Positions 1 through 38,949 of a stretch of 38,949 nucleotides of DNA are shown piece after piece (within the stretch, counting starts at the first letter, position 1; each line of letters starts with the position of its first letter). The position numbers and the translations under genes are program-made. The DNA is from a virus: the UHGV virus genome UHGV-0097970; one strand, 5' to 3'. The notes under the pieces are model-generated. The model had not been told where the DNA came from. It did not search any database and saw nothing but the letters and a program-made list of their open reading frames with translations.

Positions 1-6
1 AACCTA

Positions 7-69
7 ATGATGAATGACGGTAAGCAACAATCTACCTTTTTGTTTCACGATTACGCGCAATACCCCTGA
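7..69 (+). pseudogene. sbcB: Displaced native 5' end of sbcB (exonuclease I), first 16 codons then phage sequence and stop
   Basis: Translation from ATG at 7 gives MMNDGKQQSTFLFHDY, matching the ExoI N-terminus as I recall it, then AQYP-stop after the att core. Confidence 0.75.
43..55. repeat. attL core
   Basis: tttcacgattacg is identical to 38871-38883; flanking 28 bp aligns with 4 mismatches (caaTctaccttTTtGttt vs caaCctaccttCCtCttt). Confidence 0.75.
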
Positions 70-110
70 GAACCGCAATGAACAAGGGTTTCATGATTTG
101 TGATTTTAGT

Positions 111-131
111 TTGGTACGCAATTTGGTACAC
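111..131 (+). promoter_or_regulatory. Putative integrase arm-type binding sites (left arm), TTGGTACGC and TTGGTACAC
   Basis: Two direct 9-mers here; three more copies of the same motif at 38666-38708 next to int. Confidence 0.45.
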
Positions 132-538
132 AACACTATTTTCACTTCAGCGGGTAGTCATCAAACTCACCATAACGAGCATCGTTGATGATGTATGTGA
201 TCACCACAAATATCACATCTGGACTAGTTCCGTCTTCATGCGCAGGTATCTGTTCACGCCTCCCTTTCTGCAAATCCTAAAGATGAGATTTTGGGGTTTT
301 GGGATATCTTTTTATCCTCAGTTCTCTATCCATTCTACAAAGCAGTAATGAACCATCACCGTGTGATAGTGAGGCATCCGCTACGTTAAGCGCAGAGAAA
401 TGATGCAGTGGTGGTCGGACTGGATTGATGAAAAGGTGTAGCAACCAACATTGCTATATCTCAGATAGCACAAAGCCTTGCAATCCAGTGCAAAGCTTTG
501 TGTGTCTCAGTTTTGTCTCATCGGTAATTATGTGTTCG

Positions 539-838
539 CTACGATGCAAGAATCCATACCAATAAGCATCCGATAATTGGGAAAGAAAAATCCAACAAAC
601 TTCCCACATCCCACACGCGTGGATCAAAACCTCCCCACCACGGCATGTTGACACGTTTCCCTTTCCCAAACTTTTCTATCCAGCGATATTCTGCCTGGGT
701 GTGTTCACGCGCAATGAAGAACGTACAACCGGCTATCGCACCGTAAGCCCAGTTTCCGGTAAAAATACCAACCAGTACCTGAGCCGCAAAAGCGCAAAGC
801 GAGTGAAGAAATGGAGTGACATCAATGCTCTTAATCAT
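539..838 (-). CDS. Small predicted membrane protein, hypothetical; possible moron
   Basis: 99-aa ORF with hydrophobic segments ([44 protein letters not shown]); its ATG overlaps the tailspike stop (ATGA at 835-838), implying co-transcription; sits between tailspike and attL. Confidence 0.5.
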
Positions 839-2892
839 GAAACTTCCCCGTTGGTTGAAAATATGGCTCCTCCAACTCCAAGTGTATTTCGTGTTGTGCT
901 CAACCTAAGAGGGCTGGAGTCAGAATTAGAATATCCTGTAGCAGAAATAAAAGATCCTCCACTAATAGTCAACTGCGGAACATCGGCTATATCTGAATAA
1001 GTTCTGTCAGCAACAGTATTATTTATAGCCACATATGATCCAAAAAAACTTCTTATTGTTTGGTTTTTAACTTTACTTCCTTCAATGGTTATCCTACTAC
1101 CACAGTCGGCAATAAATCCTGAATCTGCATCCAGCGTTGCATTCATAAAAGAAGCTTCAGATCTCTCTACATCAATCCATCTAATATCTTTTGTGGGATT
1201 TGCACCAAATACATGACAAATATTAGAGTTAAACCTTACACCATCTTGGAGGTGCATTAATTTTTTTATATCTGTACCCCATAGCCTTGGAAAATTAACA
1301 GATGCTCCTGCATGGCAATCAAATCCCAGCTCAGCCCCTGAGATATCTACAGCCTTTCCTGAAATAACAGCACCAGTGTCTGCATTAACGGCTGTTCCAC
1401 AATTGCGCATATCATTACCAGCAACATCAACACAACCCGCACCATCAATACGCACACCAAGTGCACATCCATAAAAACCTTTTTCAATATTTGGTTCAAG
1501 GACTTTACCACTTGTTTCTGCATCACTTTCTTCAACGTCATGTCGTCTTGCATCAACATATGCTGTATGAATGCAGGTTAATCCACGATATGAGCAATGT
1601 ATAGTTTTATGGTCGCGTATATTAACATTTGAACCATCTCTTACATTCCATCCTATATAACAATAGCTTGCACTTGACCCCTGAAAATCTGCTTTAACAT
1701 TATAAATACAATTAACTGACGCAACCGTACTCTCTGTGCACCGTTCAAACTTGCTTACAGGCATTGATGCCTTGACATTATTTACCAGTTGCAGGGAAGA
1801 GTATCTGCTATAAGAAAAATCACATACGTAATACCCTTCTGGCATATATGCAGCAACACTTTCCTCATCAGGAGCACATCCGGTATGATATGCACTAATT
1901 TTTGCACCAAAGCTACCATGAATTCCAACGTAGAACTTTCGAGCACCTGAATACGGATAGAAATTAAGTTCAGCTTTTTGAGTTACAATAAATGCACAAA
2001 CATCGCTATCATCTCTATTTTCTTCAATCTGAATAGCAAATACAGGACTTTTTGCTGCATCGCAAATGTAAAATAAATATTTGTATTCGTAATACGTCCT
2101 AACAGTTTTAGTAAACAAACTGGTATCAGAGAAAACCACTGAGTCTTCTGATATTATTTTAATCCATGATAAGTCACATCCTGCTGAAATTTCTATTTGC
2201 TCATTGAGCACAAAACCGGAAAGAATTTTAATTATGCAAAAATCAATGCCATTTTTCCATAGTGGACGCAGTGCAACAGCTGAGTTTAGAGCATCACTAA
2301 TAGATTTAAAATTACCATATTCCCCAACTGTTATTGTGAATGCATACCTGGAATTAAATACTGCGGCACTCTCTCCAGAGTTAATAGCTGCAGATATCAT
2401 GTCATAATTTGATATAAAATCATTTGGCGTGATTATTTCTGCGTTTTTATTGTGCTGTGTTCTAAGTTTTGAATTTACATGAACACTTTTAACTGCAATA
2501 CGGGAGTCGTCAACAAGTATTTCATTACCCTCTGTTGCTAACTCTTGTCTTAACTGATCCGGGTCATACTTCAGCACATTCGGAAAATAGAACTGCTGTG
2601 CACCATACGCATCATAAACAGCCATAGAATGGCCTTGCACAGTTACGAACTTGGCAATCTGTCCGTTATATACCGGGTAACCAGCAGTGTTAATGATGAT
2701 TGGTTGAGAAACAGGAACGTGAGAGCCGTCTTCGTTCTCCACATAAACCTGAATCTGGTTTTCAGGATTTACCGGGTCAGTGTCAATTTTACCGATATAA
2801 ATTTTGCCATTAGCTACGGCTTTAAAAGAACGCGCCATAGTGAAGAGTTGCGAAGGCATTGATACGATCACATTGGCTGTAATGTCTGTCAT
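835..2892 (-). CDS. Tailspike protein with P22 gp9-type N-terminal head-binding domain and divergent receptor-binding domain
   Basis: N-terminal ~110 aa ([13 protein letters not shown]...KYDPDQ) closely matches the P22 tailspike head-binding domain from memory; remaining ~570 aa are unrelated to P22 gp9 and AT-rich. Confidence 0.9.
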
Positions 2893-3024
2893 TTAATTTG
2901 CTCCAGATACAAGGAATGGCCGCAGCATGGCTACGGTTGGAATTTGTTACATACCTAAACGGTACGATTGTTGATTTGTACAGTGGGTTTTACGATGCCA
3001 TTCCACCCATTTGGTGAGGCATTG

Positions 3025-3282
3025 ATGATGTACAGCAAATACGATGAGGCGCAGTTCCACTTGAGGCTTACACACGAGTTGCACGCTAAGATTAAGCAGC
3101 GTGCAAAAATGAATAACAGGTCTATCAATTCCGAAATTGTGGCTACGATGGAAGAATCACTCTCCAAACCATCACCTGTAAGCGGGTATCGTGATGAAGA
3201 AGAAAGGCTGGCCTCATTAATCTCGGAACGAGTAAAAGAAGTTGCGGCTGAAATTCTAAGGAAAGAAAAAACCCGCGATTAA
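3025..3282 (+). CDS. mnt: Mnt-like ribbon-helix-helix repressor
   Basis: SKPSPVSGYRDEEERLA matches P22 Mnt SKPSPVTGYRNDAERLA; RHH N-terminus FHLRLTHELHAKIKQRAKMNNRSINSEIV; start chosen at internal ATG after GGTGAGG RBS. Confidence 0.8.
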   Translation: MMYSKYDEAQFHLRLTHELHAKIKQRAKMNNRSINSEIVATMEESLSKPSPVSGYRDEEERLASLISERVKEVAAEILRKEKTRD

Positions 3283-3297
3283 GCGGGTTTAGTTTTC
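3265..3297. terminator. Bidirectional intrinsic terminator between convergent mnt and antirepressor genes
   Basis: aaaaaaCCCGCgattaaGCGGGtttagtttt: GC stem flanked by A-run and T-run, so U-tract on either strand. Confidence 0.6.
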
Positions 3298-3308
3298 ATT
3301 ATAAAATG

Positions 3309-4037
3309 TTACGCCACATTTGAGCCATGTAGTAGGTGTTGTAGTGCTTTAACGCCTTCAGAATTGTAACGGAACGCCTCTACCTGTTTGCTGGAATGCG
3401 CCGATTTATCCAGGAAGAACTTCCCGTACTGCTCAGTTTTGAGGTTGTTTGCGTTAGCAATGCGACCAATCTTGTTGGCCGTTACTCCAAGCTGCTCTGC
3501 AACCTCCCCTGCTGAGTAGTAATGCTCTTCTATTGCCGGAAGAGGTATTGCATTAAAACCAACGAGCGGGTTGATTATACTTGCTGCCGCTGTCTGCTTT
3601 GCCTCAGGCGCAAGATTTGGCATCAGATCGAACAGATTGGTAACAGCTTCAACCGTCATTTTCAATGTTCGCGCTTGACGATACTCAACAAGTCCACTCG
3701 CTGATTTACCGCTTTTAATGTGCGCTTCTTGCATACTTTCAAGTTGGTCTACCAGTGAGCGGCGAACGGCTTTTGACTCGCGAGCGGCAACTCGCAATGC
3801 TTGCTTGATTGACATCTCAATGATAACCATCGAAGTTTTGTTCGCTTTTTGCACTACACTTTTTGTGTAGTGCTCTCCATCCAATTCATCTTCAATTTTC
3901 TCGATGAATTTGTTATTACGAACCTCCGGCTCACCGCACTGTCTACGAGCCTGATTTACCATCTCAAGAAGGCGCTGGCTGTCAATGGTTTTATCCGTGA
4001 CAACGGATCCGATGTTTGCTACATTCTTAAAAGTCAT
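3309..4037 (-). CDS. Putative antirepressor-module / phage regulatory protein
   Basis: 242-aa ORF downstream of ant; AAGGAA RBS 7 nt before MTFKNVANIG; C-terminal region looks like a DNA-binding segment (SAGEVAEQLGVTANKIGRIANANNL). Family assignment from memory only. Confidence 0.45.
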   Translation of the reverse strand: MTFKNVANIGSVVTDKTIDSQRLLEMVNQARRQCGEPEVRNNKFIEKIEDELDGEHYTKSVVQKANKTSMVIIEMSIKQALRVAARESKAVRRSLVDQLESMQEAHIKSGKSASGLVEYRQARTLKMTVEAVTNLFDLMPNLAPEAKQTAAASIINPLVGFNAIPLPAIEEHYYSAGEVAEQLGVTANKIGRIANANNLKTEQYGKFFLDKSAHSSKQVEAFRYNSEGVKALQHLLHGSNVA

Positions 4038-4075
4038 TAGGCATTCCTTATGTGGTAGTAAGGGTGTGACATAGG

Positions 4076-4106
4076 CCGCCAGCAGCACACTGGCGGTTTT
4101 CTTTTT
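4076..4106 (+). terminator. Intrinsic terminator on + strand, antisense to the ant operon
   Basis: CCGCCAG-cagcaca-CTGGCGG followed by ttttcttttt on the + strand. Confidence 0.5.
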
Positions 4107-4125
4107 GCGCCGTCCGGCGCACCAA

Positions 4126-4752
4126 TCAATGAATCCATTCCTCGCCGCGCAGTTTTGCCAGCATTGGCTGAGCGTTCTTTACGACAAAATTGTTGGTATC
4201 AAGATTCTTCATTTCACGAAGAAGTGATTTCTTGGTTTCTTCTGACATATAGCGAGTCTCATATGCGATATCGTAAATCCTTCCTGAAAGCTCAGAACAA
4301 ATTTGCTTCATTCCTGGGTAGATGTGTTTGCACATTTGTTGACTCTTCTCCATCCACAATTGTAAGTAGCAGAGATTAACCAGTTCTTCGTCAGTAAACT
4401 GTTTTGCAATCGGTGAGCATTCTGCCTGCCGATCCAAAATATCCAGCACCCAGCGGCGGAACTCTTTGGCTACCGGAGTGCGAGCAAACATCGCGATTAG
4501 GTGGGCACCGCGTAGTGAGAAAACTCGCACTTTTTTGCGATAATTTCCTGAGGTACTCACTTCGAGTACCTGAGTCATTCCAGCGCTAAACTCATCGCTA
4601 TACTTGTTATAAATCATTGTTACTGCACGACTATTTGCGTATTTAAGTGCAGATGCAATATTAGATGATGTAAACCAAACACCATGCATATCACGGGTGG
4701 GCACCAACTCAACTCCGTGGAAGTTGTATTCTGATTTTGCTACAATATTCAT
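4126..4752 (-). CDS. ant: Antirepressor Ant (Bro-N domain)
   Basis: MNIVAKSEYNFHGVELVPTRDMHGVWFTSSNIASAL...FSLRGAHLIAMFARTPVAKEFRRWVLDIL is a Bro-N-type antirepressor N-terminus; start set at internal ATG preceded by GGAAA; follows arc. Confidence 0.8.
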   Translation of the reverse strand: MNIVAKSEYNFHGVELVPTRDMHGVWFTSSNIASALKYANSRAVTMIYNKYSDEFSAGMTQVLEVSTSGNYRKKVRVFSLRGAHLIAMFARTPVAKEFRRWVLDILDRQAECSPIAKQFTDEELVNLCYLQLWMEKSQQMCKHIYPGMKQICSELSGRIYDIAYETRYMSEETKKSLLREMKNLDTNNFVVKNAQPMLAKLRGEEWIH

Positions 4753-20741: not shown

Positions 20742-21179
20742 TCATCGAAGGCATTGCGTCCTGATGTATTCCTGCAGGTAGTTAACCTGCGCGGTTATCC
20801 TGTCGATTCCACTTCGGAGACGGTAATAATTGAGTTCAGCATCTGCTGTAAGTCTTGGGCTTTCTCCATCGCCCATGCTGCTGGCTCCGGTCGTTGACTT
20901 TGCACAGGTGGCGGCGACTTGCAGGCGCTTACGCCCAGCAGAAACATCAGCACGGAGGCTTTCGATAGTCGCGTTAGCATCAGCAAGCTCCTTTGTGTAT
21001 CTGGCGTCAAGTTCTGCTACATCACGTTGACGCTTCTGCATGTCAGCGATGATGGATGTGGCTTTGTCGCGCTGGGCTTTGTAGGCGATGGCGTTATCCC
21101 GGTAATGATTAACAGCCCATGACAGACAGACGATGATGCAGATAACCAGAGCGGAGATAATCGCGGTGACTCTGCTCAT
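20742..21179 (-). CDS. Rz: Spanin inner-membrane subunit Rz
   Basis: [31 protein letters not shown]... matches lambda Rz; follows R. Confidence 0.9.
20795..20980 (-). CDS. Rz1: Spanin outer-membrane lipoprotein Rz1, embedded in Rz in +1 frame
   Basis: Internal [39 protein letters not shown]... with lipobox LGVSAC and proline-rich segment; start set at the internal Met. Confidence 0.7.
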
Positions 21180-21652
21180 ACCTCAATCTCTCTGACCGTT
21201 CCGCCAGCCTCTTTGAATTTTGCAATCAGGCTGTCAGCCTTATGCTCGAACTGACCATAACCAGCCCCCGGCAGTGAAGCCCAGATATTGCTGCAACGGT
21301 CGATAGCCTGACGAATATCGCCGCGATCAATCATCGGTAAAGCGCCACGCTCTTTAATCTGTTGCAATGCCACAGCGTCCTGGCTTTTTGGAGAGAAGTC
21401 TTTCAGGCCAAGCTGCTTACGGTAGGCATCCCACCAACGGGAAAGAAGCTGGTAACGTCCGGCGGCTGTTGATTTGAGTTTGGGGTTTAGCGTGACAAGT
21501 TTGCGAGGGTGATCGGAGTAATCAGTGAATAGCTCTCCGCCTACAATGACGTCATAACCATGATTTCTGGTTTTCTGCCGTCCGTTATCAGTTCCCTCTG
21601 ACCACGCCAGCATATCGAGGAACGCCTTACGTTGATTATTGATTTCCACCAT
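21176..21652 (-). CDS. R: Endolysin R (lytic transglycosylase)
   Basis: [39 protein letters not shown]... matches lambda R. Confidence 0.95.
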
Positions 21653-21959
21653 CTTCTACTCCGGCTTTTTTAGCAGCGAAGCGTTTGATAAGCGAACCAA
21701 TCGAGTCAGTACCGATGTAGCCGATGAACACGCTCGTTATATAAGCGAGATTGCTACTTAGTCCGGCGAAGTCGAGAAGGTCACGAATGAACCAGGCGAT
21801 AATGGCGCACATCGTTGCGTCGATTACTGTTTTTGTAAACGCACCGCCATTATATCTGCCGCGAAGGTACGCCATTGCAAACGCAAGGATTGCCCCGATG
21901 CCTTGTTCCTTTGCCGCGAGAATAGCGGCTAACAGGTCATGTTTTTCTGGCATCTTCAT
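21636..21959 (-). CDS. S: Holin/antiholin S (dual start)
   Basis: [41 protein letters not shown]... matches lambda S107/S105. Confidence 0.95.
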
Positions 21960-37305: not shown

Positions 37306-37497
37306 ATGACCGATACCAGCCTGATTCCTGAGAAAGAAGTGATGAACAAGCTCGGTGTTTCATCACGTCAGACAATCTGGAACTATACCAAACGGCATGG
37401 ATTTCCGAAGCCAGTCAGAACCCACCCCAAATCATACCTTCGCGAAGCTGTTGAAGGGTGGATTCTTAACGGTGGCGTTAATCAGAAATGCTCCTGA
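37306..37497 (+). CDS. AlpA-family excisionase / DNA-binding regulator
   Basis: EKEVMNKLGVSSRQTIWNYTKRHGFPKPVRTHPKSYLREAVEGWI fits the AlpA/Xis pattern. Confidence 0.8.
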   Translation: MTDTSLIPEKEVMNKLGVSSRQTIWNYTKRHGFPKPVRTHPKSYLREAVEGWILNGGVNQKCS

Positions 37498-38656
37498 TGT
37501 GCCAGAACAATTTATCAGCGTGAAGCTCATACGCTTTGCGCTGAGCCTCTATCCAATCGTGTTTATTGTATACGGACATTATCCCGCCAAGTTCATGACC
37601 GAGCATTCGCTCAGTAACATGAGGCTCGACATTCATCTCGGACAGACGTGTAACAAGCGTTCTTCTGAAATCATGTGTTCGCCAGTAACCTATATCCATC
37701 CCTCCCCTTATTCTATTTACGAATCGGTTGGCTGCAGCGATGCTGATCGGTTTGTTTATGTCTTCTCCAGGGAAAAGAACATCATTGTACGTTGTCATGG
37801 CCTTTTCGAGAAAAGGCTTAATTTGTTCGAAGATTGGACGACGGATAACATTACCCATCTTGCTATGCTCTTTCGGTACGGTCCATACGTTGTCCAGCAG
37901 GTCAAATTCTGTCTTTGTTGCCAGCCTAAGCTCTGAGAGCCTCGCCCCCCACAGCATAAGCATCTGATGAAGGAGCTTATTTGACGTAGACGCACGGCTT
38001 CTTTCAATAGCAAGCCAAATCTTAGCCAGTTCGTGATACGACAGTACCCGATCCCCTACCTCAGCGCGGGAGCCGAAGTCCCTTGGCTGGATGCTCATAA
38101 TTGCGCAACTATCTATCAACTGACGCCGCATGCACCAACTAATTGCTGATCTTAGTTGACTTAGCACCTGCCTTGCTCGGCGTGGATTATCTCTTTCTTC
38201 TTCGGTAAGCAGGTCAACCCATTGCTTAACCGTGATAGAAGATGCCGGACGATTAGGAAATGCGTCATGCATGCGCTTCATAACCGTTGATCGGTAAAGT
38301 GCCTGGGTCTTTTCTCTGAGAGTTGTAGAGACGTAGTTGTCGAACCAGTAGTCGAGACACTGGGCGACCGTCATGGAGTTCTCCACCTTCTCTTCAAAAT
38401 AAGTGCGTGGATCCGTTCCTGAGAAATAGAGCTTTCGCAAGTCAGCAGTGATCTGTCTGGCATCCTTCAAAGACAGGGATGGGTATCGACCAAGCCCAAG
38501 TCGATTAGGCTTGCCATGCCAGCGATAGCGGTACTGGAACTGGATGACCCCCTTCGGTGAAATTCGTACGCTGAGGCCATCGGCATCAGCCACTTCTTGT
38601 GGGCCCGAATATGGTTTACCATAAATAGTACGAAGTTTTGTGTCGCTTATAGCCAT
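37478..38656 (-). CDS. int: Tyrosine integrase
   Basis: 392 aa; N-terminal arm-binding-type region; C-terminal catalytic signature HDFRRT ... GHELGGIMSVYNKHD with Tyr; adjacent to attR. Confidence 0.95.
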   Translation of the reverse strand: MAISDTKLRTIYGKPYSGPQEVADADGLSVRISPKGVIQFQYRYRWHGKPNRLGLGRYPSLSLKDARQITADLRKLYFSGTDPRTYFEEKVENSMTVAQCLDYWFDNYVSTTLREKTQALYRSTVMKRMHDAFPNRPASSITVKQWVDLLTEEERDNPRRARQVLSQLRSAISWCMRRQLIDSCAIMSIQPRDFGSRAEVGDRVLSYHELAKIWLAIERSRASTSNKLLHQMLMLWGARLSELRLATKTEFDLLDNVWTVPKEHSKMGNVIRRPIFEQIKPFLEKAMTTYNDVLFPGEDINKPISIAAANRFVNRIRGGMDIGYWRTHDFRRTLVTRLSEMNVEPHVTERMLGHELGGIMSVYNKHDWIEAQRKAYELHADKLFWHIRSISD

Positions 38657-38837: not shown

Positions 38838-38949
38838 ATGACAGACACAGATAAGCAACCTACCTTCCTCTTTCACGATTACGAAACCTTTGGAACGCAC
38901 CCCGCGTTAGATCGCCCTGCACAGTTCGCAGCCATTCGCACCGATAGCG
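38838..38949 (+). CDS. sbcB: sbcB (exonuclease I) 5' end, reconstituted with phage-encoded first 10 codons; partial, continues beyond window
   Basis: MTDTDKQPTFLFHDYETFGTHPALDRPAQFAAIRTDS; from the att core onward matches the ExoI N-terminus as I recall it, while the first ~10 codons differ from native MMNDGKQQST. Confidence 0.8.
   Translation, partial: MTDTDKQPTFLFHDYETFGTHPALDRPAQFAAIRTDS
38871..38883. repeat. attR core
   Basis: tttcacgattacg identical to 43-55. Confidence 0.75.

Follow-up and report, generated by a model that had tools for sequence, protein, structure and literature searches.

UHGV-0097970 is a virus genome of 38,949 nucleotides, analysed here over its full length (the window). 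The window is an integrated prophage in sbcB, the host flank being identified from its sequence and from record notes. The gene of interest is an open reading frame (ORF) on the minus strand at 539-838, which begins within the end of a P22-type tailspike gene and is the last gene before the left junction. No other plausible gene lies between it and position 55, where the left attachment-site (att) core at 43-55 ends. An original prediction, made from the sequence alone, had described a short, hydrophobic membrane protein next to attL. This description held: the ORF occupies that position, and its product has 99 amino acids with hydropathy peaks, which AlphaFold2 modelled as three helices. The features that bear on the gene are as follows.

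539-838, minus strand: small gene, 99 amino acids, ATG start (ORF list, phrog_1443 match, substitution rates, AlphaFold2)
835-2892, minus strand: P22-type tailspike, 685 amino acids, with a head-binding N-terminal domain and an AT-rich receptor-binding body (PF09008 Head_binding, E 1.4e-66; phrog_5662, E 0)
835-838, minus strand: ATGA overlap of 4 nt between the tailspike TGA (837-835) and the small-gene ATG (838-836) (read directly)
843-849, minus strand: Shine-Dalgarno-like GGGGAAG inside the tailspike 3' end, of presumed function, with GGGGA 6 nt 5' of the ATG (read directly)
821-838, minus strand: chimeric 5' end, with the ATG and codons 2-4 (MIKS) from the spike cassette flank (context alignment, megablast, 92CQ sequence)
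469-502: inverted repeat of 14 bp, CACAAAGCCTTGCA / TGCAAAGCTTTGTG, loop ATCCAG, 37 nt past the stop of the small gene (folding)

Family membership and predicted architecture

The length of the ORF is in itself no evidence for a gene, because an antisense ORF of the same 99-residue size is open by chance at 701-1000 on the plus strand. The evidence lies in conservation. Pairwise ratios of nonsynonymous to synonymous substitution rates (dN/dS) among six copies ranged from 0.13 to 0.30, with synonymous divergence (dS) of up to 0.85, and 14 positions were invariant across 70 homologs of the close family, with 27 more conserved in at least 90%. The product matched the PHROG profile phrog_1443 (function unknown; E 9.1e-54; residues 5-98 on profile positions 1-94 of 97), relatives of which are named 'Ybl63' in some UniProt entries. 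The ORF is almost certainly a real gene and a member of the phrog_1443/'Ybl63' family, with which it shares its length, its three-helix plan and an invariant motif; the window copy differs in having an added N-terminal MIKS, an isoleucine in place of the initiator methionine, and no AGGA site. The original prediction could not place the product in a known family, a judgement overturned by the homology search, which led to a large and uncharacterised one.

The exact sequence is already public under the label 'hypothetical protein': the Lederbergvirus phages JEP4 (JEP4_21) and HZ41 encode it with 100% identity, as do E. coli FORC_082 and several E. coli genomes, and about 50 other coliphage records hold proteins of 74-90% identity. 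A word-indexed protein search returned 424 relatives, every one labelled 'hypothetical', and a profile search of 1.84 billion cluster representatives returned 441 clusters; among the 150 listed, all were stand-alone proteins of 58-146 amino acids. Homologous DNA was present in 1918 of 5426 complete E. coli genomes, at a median of two and a maximum of seven places per genome, and 65 places were on plasmids. In a species scan (one genome per species, two exact peptide patterns; an underestimate), intact copies were found in Escherichia, Leclercia, Silvania, Pantoea, Aeromonas, Halomonas, Comamonas, Acidovorax, Pigmentiphaga, Chelativorans and Sphingomonas/Sphingomicrobium; these belong to the gamma-, beta- and alpha-proteobacteria, and matches in Desulfovibrio were weaker or partial.

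Annotation searches gave little further information. The window protein had no match in Pfam (E ≤ 1) or NCBIfam, among the PADLOC defence models, or in a profile search against Protein Data Bank sequences and in fold searches, and Pfam searches with 70 aligned members (E ≤ 10) returned only scattered transmembrane-type noise (PhoR N-terminus in 9 of 70, best E 0.039). An Rfam search of window positions 1-3400 was likewise empty. Nor was a match to a characterised virion or assembly component found, in keeping with the original prediction. A literature search found no paper naming ybl63, phrog_1443 or the protein accessions, and nothing on the phrog_1443 protein was found in the literature on phage 21 and sitABCD or on Lambda_ev/1H12 phages. 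The family is nevertheless among the commoner unannotated prophage genes of E. coli, one for which our searches turned up neither a Pfam model nor a paper, nor any fold that is solved or similar.

Conservation is concentrated in a small set of residues. Across 117 distant representatives with a median identity of 39%, a core of H12, R44, E45, Q48, A49, E50, R62, W76, D83 and P87 survives, with Y51 and R52 kept less strictly, and the window protein carries every core residue (H12, R-E-x-x-Q-A-E at 44-50, R62, W76, D83 and P87). AlphaFold2, run on the 70-sequence alignment, predicted helices at 8-27, 30-57 and 78-98 with a predicted local distance difference test score (pLDDT) of 91.6, the first two forming a hairpin joined by G28-N29; hydropathy peaks at about 9-28 and 80-99, and a weaker one at 30-43, agree with these helices. 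The protein thus has all the architectural features of phrog_1443, i.e., it is stand-alone, of about 95-105 amino acids, with a helical hairpin, a basic loop and a C-terminal helix. Basic residues crowd into the loop: among the distant members, the mean number of lysines plus arginines was 5.4 in loop 44-77, 0.17 in the 26-31 turn and 0.64 in the C-terminal tail. By the positive-inside rule, this distribution points to an N-terminus inside the cell, a cytoplasmic loop 44-77 and a C-terminus in the periplasm, and a membrane protein of this modelled topology is likely. The invariant polar residues would then sit at or near the cytoplasmic membrane surface, judging from the helix positions.

Two readings based on the cysteines were considered and rejected. 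The sequence I-A-G-C38 is lipobox-like, as might be expected of a lipoprotein or secreted protein, but only 26% of distant members retain C38. A zinc or disulfide site formed by C38 and C91 was likewise set aside, as these cysteines are not conserved in distant members.

Genomic setting and the ATGA junction

We surveyed 80 IMG/VR loci for the same-strand ORF directly upstream of the family gene. At least 74 of these viral loci carried a receptor-binding gene in this position. In 53 it was a tail fibre ending in Peptidase_S74, an intramolecular-chaperone domain, with a 10-nt gap after fibres of the 234/227-residue type and a 36-nt gap after those of the 346-residue type. P22-type head-binding tailspikes accounted for 15 loci, the window's spike body on a different N-terminal adaptor for 5, and a phage-21-type side fibre for 1. 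The stop codon of an upstream ORF of 892-898 amino acids abuts the family gene's ATG at loci L034-L036, and 19 of the 80 loci end exactly at the family gene's stop codon.

This linkage recurs in diverse gene orders. JEP4 has the order spike, family gene, convergent integrase; phage 21 and 1H12 have J, side fibre, a 92-residue ORF, the family gene (CPT_21_24 in phage 21) and sitABCD; and BL21-type and other lambdoid prophages have J, lom, fibre, the 92-residue ORF, an S74 piece, the family gene and a tfa remnant. The gene is also linked to receptor-binding genes on a 106-kb plasmid and after an S74 'pyocin knob' fibre. In HP1/P2-like myophage prophages of Aeromonas and Leclercia, it overlaps or abuts the fibre gene within the tail operon and is followed by baseplate genes, while in a siphophage-type element it overlaps an S74 fibre gene by 8 nt and in Comamonas it follows a J-like tip protein. 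Upstream neighbours at 28 more non-Escherichia loci were mostly tail or tail-fibre PHROGs, though less uniform (family-level counts), and included phrog_18574 in three members and a ligase at the element edge in two. Across these elements, the constant context is adjacency to a receptor-binding gene and not a prophage end. The original prediction was right about the position of the gene at the prophage end, which does not carry over as a defining context, given such arrangements as the myophage tail operons.

Three further observations concern this neighbourhood. The conserved, acidic 92-residue ORF (phrog_1361; CPT_21_23 in phage 21, L002 4710-4988; also L006 and L100-L103) always lies between a lambdoid side fibre and the S74 piece or family gene, and the related phrog_18574 precedes the family gene in three non-Escherichia genomes; phrog_1361 may be the real fibre-associated partner. 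In the Aeromonas jumbo phage ACP1 (L012, 530-3907), the family gene is preceded by an intein-interrupted large terminase subunit (Hint, LAGLIDADG) and followed by a tailspike. In an assembly of E. coli BL21(RP) (NZ_CP084683, L006), the fibre cluster and family gene stand beside cat, an IS1 fragment and rRNA/tRNA genes, a context more suggestive of an integrated helper plasmid, or of a join made in assembly, than of a native prophage.

The window's own junction departs from the usual layout of the family, in which the fibre stop is followed by 10-40 nt with an AGGA ribosome-binding site and then an ATG-GAT start. On the minus strand, the junction between tailspike and small gene reads ...CGGGGAAGTTTCATGATTAAG, or over a longer stretch ...CGGGGAAGTTTCATGATTAAGAGC..., and it lacks the family's own AGGA site. 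The usual ATG-GAT start corresponds to codon 5 of the window ORF, which is ATT (Ile5) in both the window and JEP4; similarity to other phrog_1443 members begins at about codons 5-6, and the new ATG lies four codons upstream. Phage 92CQ (130 kb, PV682554) has the same spike body at 99.4% nucleotide identity, without the family gene. Its spike gene ends ...GGGGAAGTTTCATGATTAAAAGTAATGAGAACGCACTATGAGAAAA and is followed by the same ATGATTAA as in the window, which in 92CQ opens a mini-ORF of nine codons (MIKSNENAL*) with a stop that overlaps the ATG of a phrog_1322 gene; the megablast match between the two sequences stops at window position 831.

From these alignments, the window ORF is an in-frame fusion of the spike cassette flank, which supplied the ATG and MIKS, with the body of a family gene, and the recombination junction lies between about 831 and about 821. 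The difference in GC content between the small gene (about 49%) and the spike body (31-41%) agrees with such an origin. Among the 80 viral loci, the -4 overlap occurs in 10, all of which carry the window's spike body. The original prediction had taken the ATGA overlap to imply co-expression. The overlap is real, but since the ATG and MIKS come from the spike cassette flank, and the same ATGATTAA follows the spike in 92CQ, it was made by recombination and is not an evolved feature of the gene. A stop/start overlap can thus be inherited from a cassette flank and need not mean that two genes evolved co-expression.

In the window tailspike, similarity to solved structures, those of Sf6 gp14 and the P22 tailspike, is limited to residues 1-160; the receptor-binding body (window 835-2500) has a GC content of 31-41% and no sequence match to solved structures. 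This body was seen on at least three N-terminal adaptors, i.e., the 685-residue P22 type, one of 729 residues and that of 614 residues in 92CQ, and is thus a mobile spike module. A resemblance of the window tailspike to the phage 21 side fibre was also considered, and was rejected on comparison.

Several phages show the small gene and its neighbour to be separable. In 611R6 (L003, 3848-3961), EC17CM6 (L008, 5331-5495) and L044, the S74 fibre C-terminus is cut to a stub of 38-55 amino acids (...ALEEENAELRQMLSAIEAALASK) that lies between an O-acetylase gene and an intact family gene; the stub is annotated 'tail fiber protein' though it is a remnant. The virulent phages KFSST3 (a Kuttervirus; L011, about 4001-4150) and HC6 (L013, about 4001-4165) have intact spikes and carry, between or after the tailspike genes, unannotated pseudogene copies damaged by stops, a frameshift and loss of a 10-residue block. 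Six further HC6-like records have the same partial match, and the decayed copies in KFSST3 and HC6 look like footprints of the import of spike or fibre cassettes from temperate phages. In addition to 92CQ, the related P22-like phage Kapi1 has no copy of the family gene at this position. The partner fibres are unrelated to one another while the core of the family protein is constant, and the protein therefore cannot be receptor- or fibre-specific. Its preservation beside stubs, its decay beside intact spikes and its absence after the same spike in 92CQ argue that it is an accessory protein and not a fibre chaperone or part of the virion; an accessory, fibre-independent role is probable.

In 92CQ (L104, 3237-3510), the same spike body is followed by the mini-ORF, with ATGA overlaps at both ends, and then by an unrelated membrane protein of 81 amino acids, phrog_1322 (hhalign probability 0.1 against phrog_1443). 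This protein resembles that of the window in being a small membrane protein relayed translationally from the same spike through the same ATGATTAA junction. It differs in sequence and length and in being followed by baseplate genes, and its PHROG category is moron/host-takeover.

By consensus scan, the sense strand upstream of the gene showed no sigma-70-like site in any of four contexts, those of the window, 611R6, phage 21 and the BL21-type arrangement, although weak or non-sigma-70 promoters are possible. On present evidence, the family gene would be a distal cistron of the late tail operon, probably translated in the window by coupling to the tailspike. The inverted repeat at 469-502 is shared by JEP4, 611R6 and EC17CM6, and the region 440-545 folds at -32.2 kcal/mol (z -3.9), with none of 200 shuffles as stable. 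The hairpin has no canonical T-run on the sense strand and a terminator scan gave no call; it probably ends the late operon and, read on the other strand, may stop transcription entering from the host side. A stem-loop between S74 fibre genes and the family gene, which looked like a terminator, was not significantly stable (z -1.3 to -1.5) and was dropped.

The original prediction also called the locus a typical site for a moron, the concept introduced by Hendrix and Juhala. Strictly defined, a moron has a promoter of its own and is expressed in lysogens. Like the lambdoid morons (lom and bor of lambda, gp15 of HK97), the family gene appears dispensable, is patchily distributed and compositionally distinct, and has its place next to tail-fibre genes where the late operon ends: it is absent from Kapi1 and 92CQ but present in JEP4 and HZ41, and its GC content is about 0.49 against 0.31-0.41 in the spike body. 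Unlike them, it has no promoter detectable by consensus scan in any of the four arrangements and is coupled to the upstream late gene. The label thus seems apt for position and composition, and for dispensability, and does not extend to an own promoter.

Candidate functions

The best overall explanation, one on which we are evenly divided, is that the gene encodes a selected accessory inner-membrane protein of three helices with a role in the envelope or in exclusion. Under this explanation, the family gene would travel at the 3' end of receptor-binding-protein cassettes that recombine between phages, and one such event would have joined it in frame to the flank of the spike gene, with loss of its own ribosome-binding site and ATG. 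Translation would now begin at the ATG that overlaps the tailspike stop, making the gene the last cistron of a late operon that ends at the strong hairpin. The invariant polar cluster at the cytoplasmic face would bind a conserved host inner-membrane component or a lipid-linked molecule, and this binding would alter the envelope of a cell that is infected or lysogenic, to the advantage of the phage; the most plausible forms are exclusion of the DNA of incoming phages or protection of the cell. We favour the infected or lysogenic cell as the beneficiary because temperate elements hold most of the intact copies, and those in virulent coliphages have decayed. That exclusion or protection, whether against an incoming phage or through an envelope change, is the actual function is a more tentative suggestion.

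The comparison with known exclusion proteins (P22 SieA, HK97 gp15 and T4 Imm) cuts both ways. Like them, the window protein is a small inner-membrane protein; its family is carried by temperate phages and has decayed in virulent coliphages. However, there is no similarity in sequence, profile or fold, the family is more conserved, and it is linked to a receptor-binding gene and not to an immunity region. Several observations weigh against an envelope or exclusion role. Exclusion proteins are typically caught in an arms race with phages and are far less conserved than the family protein. Searches of PHROG profiles and PADLOC revealed no similarity to known exclusion or defence proteins, the only PHROG matches being to families of unknown function. 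Intact, divergent copies occur in Aeromonas phages, including a jumbo phage of 236 kb, which fits poorly with a benefit confined to lysogeny, and some prophage copies are frameshifted or carry stops. The lack of a visible promoter would make this a late-only gene, an odd fit for classical exclusion expressed from a prophage. Overlaps of 4-8 nt or abutting stops with fibre genes in unrelated phages, together with the slot inside myophage tail operons, could also be signs of a fibre-related role. Lastly, the annotators of phage 21 predicted a different topology, with two transmembrane domains and both termini inside (TMHMM) and a signal sequence of 29 amino acids (SignalP). We consider this less likely, because the model folds the hydrophobic stretch of 36 residues (8-43) into a hairpin and conservation is lacking for the lipobox-like cysteine.

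The signs of fibre coupling would be explained if the protein were a membrane-associated helper for the maturation or assembly of the adjacent fibre or spike, for instance by holding or organising nascent trimers at the inner membrane, in place of a Tfa- or G-type chaperone. Such a helper would account for the constant adjacency, for the frequent translational coupling in podo-, sipho- and myophages, and for the family gene having no detected promoter of its own. In HP1/P2-like prophages, moreover, the gene stands between the fibre and baseplate genes, the slot of the P2 fibre chaperone G. Yet the partner fibres are unrelated to one another while the core of the small protein is invariant, and the S74 fibres bring their own intramolecular chaperone (Pfam PF13884). 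Tfa and P2 G are soluble, needed by a cognate fibre and inherited together with it, whereas the window protein is a predicted membrane protein with unrelated partners, and we know of no membrane-embedded fibre chaperone. With the gene also intact beside fibre stubs, decayed beside intact spikes in virulent phages, and missing from the 92CQ spike body, a fibre helper is improbable.

The conserved cluster might instead act directly on its target. The protein could be a minimal membrane-embedded enzyme or ligand-binding module, in which the His/Arg/Glu/Gln/Asp/Trp cluster acts on a conserved inner-membrane molecule, although we rate this too as rather improbable. The target might be an undecaprenyl-phosphate-linked envelope precursor or a core membrane machine, and the effect would be to reprogram the surface seen by receptor-binding proteins, beside whose genes phages of all three tail types would carry the module. 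If true, this would amount to a new class of phage host-takeover function present in about a third of E. coli genomes. The enzyme-like invariant motif and the tie to receptor-binding genes across podo-, sipho- and myophages make the family notable in any case.

A more specific version of envelope change is serotype conversion, in which the protein would act on the synthesis of O-antigen or of undecaprenyl-linked polysaccharide and so alter the phage receptor. The small polymerase inhibitors of phages D3 and epsilon15 provide a model. The gene has the same slot between tailspike and att as the conversion genes of P22-like phages, occupied by gtrABC in P22 and oac in Sf6; in phage 611R6 this accessory slot holds an O-acetylase. 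Many of the partner proteins are polysaccharide-specific spikes, and a phosphorylated lipid carrier could be the ligand of the conserved Arg/Glu/Asp/His cluster at the cytoplasmic surface. However, neither the protein nor the 70 family members matched GtrA or acyl- or glycosyltransferase families in Pfam, the protein has no homology to the products of gtrABC or oac/OafA, and no partner genes lie between the small gene and att. The separate O-acetylase of 611R6 coexists with the family gene, and the family also accompanies lambdoid side fibres and Aeromonas and Comamonas fibres, whose receptors need not be O-antigen. A conversion factor is, on balance, quite unlikely. Two published leads turned out to concern other genes: 'hyp24' of Kapi1, for which deletion and overexpression left lipopolysaccharide unchanged and which seemed to offer a direct test, is Kapi1_068, an unrelated ORF of 34 amino acids on the other strand, and the seroconversion described in a preprint on Hf4s involves a standard gtrABC cluster and not the family gene.

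A role as a holin-like protein or in lysis timing, with synthesis alongside the last late genes, is very unlikely. A length of about 100 amino acids, three hydrophobic helices and apparently late expression would suit a holin, the holin gene follows the tail-fibre genes in T4 and T7, and one family member has a weak match to Phage_holin_8 (E 0.007). This match is confined to 1 of 70 members, though, and the window already has a lambda-type S/R/Rz/Rz1 cassette at 20742-21959. Unlike a class I holin, which has its N-terminus outside and its C-terminus inside, the window protein lies outside the lysis cassette, ends in a hydrophobic helix with no charged C-terminal tail, has no dual start, and carries a large, conserved basic loop that the charge bias places inside. 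No examined family member adjoins lysis genes, including those in Comamonas and in a metagenomic siphophage. For each of the exclusion, Gtr, holin, fibre-chaperone and lipoprotein families, a defining feature was looked for in the window protein and was not found.

Least credible is a functionless passenger in a conserved 3' flank used for fibre-cassette recombination: the gene does move with fibre 3' ends, has left fragments in several phages and is frameshifted or interrupted by stops in some prophages, but dN/dS of 0.13-0.30 at near-saturated synonymous divergence contradicts this, and hitch-hiking at the DNA level is insufficient to explain a motif invariant across Proteobacteria at a median identity of about 39%. 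As tail-fibre cassettes are widely swapped in host-range engineering, the effect of a gene carried with them on infection, exclusion and the envelope is of practical relevance.

Prophage ends and neighbouring features

The assignment of the window to an integrated prophage rests on its two ends, where the following features were found.

43-55, plus strand: left att core TTTCACGATTACG, 13 bp, with a second copy at 38871-38883 (exact duplicate)
8-42, plus strand: 5' end of host sbcB, MMNDGKQQSTFL..., left of the att core (read directly; matches the O157 chromosomal flank in the Stx2-1717 record)

The core TTTCACGATTACG occurs exactly twice in the window, and two matches were obtained in none of 100 shuffles. 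Its places agree with annotations in phage mEp234 and Stx2 phage 1717 (attP or 'duplication'), sbcB coding sequence lies outside both copies, and the integrase (37478-38656, 392 amino acids) is of the phage 2851/mEp234 type. A 94-residue ORF near the same att region, gp79 of Stx2-1717, was compared with the family and is unrelated to it.

The left junction retains the host start (MMNDGKQQSTFLFHDY), and the frame that follows is closed by a stop contributed by the phage (AQYP*). At the right junction, the phage brings an ATG at about 38840 (MTDTDKQPTFLFHDY-ETFGTHPALDRPAQFAAIRTDS) that rebuilds the sbcB frame with an N-terminus and upstream region supplied by the phage, and from this arrangement the prophage may restore expression of the interrupted gene.

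The att-proximal region is a mosaic. Window 26-518 resembles the att-proximal non-coding region of mEp234 and of 2851-type Stx phages, while the homology to JEP4 and HZ41 that covers the spike and the small gene starts at 387 and extends to the right. The modules thus share about 130 nt, and this stretch at 387-518 is a possible recombination zone. The lysis cassette at 20742-21959 is complete, with an S holin that has an MKM dual start, an R transglycosylase and an Rz gene with embedded Rz1, and is thus a lambda-type cassette in an otherwise P22-like prophage.

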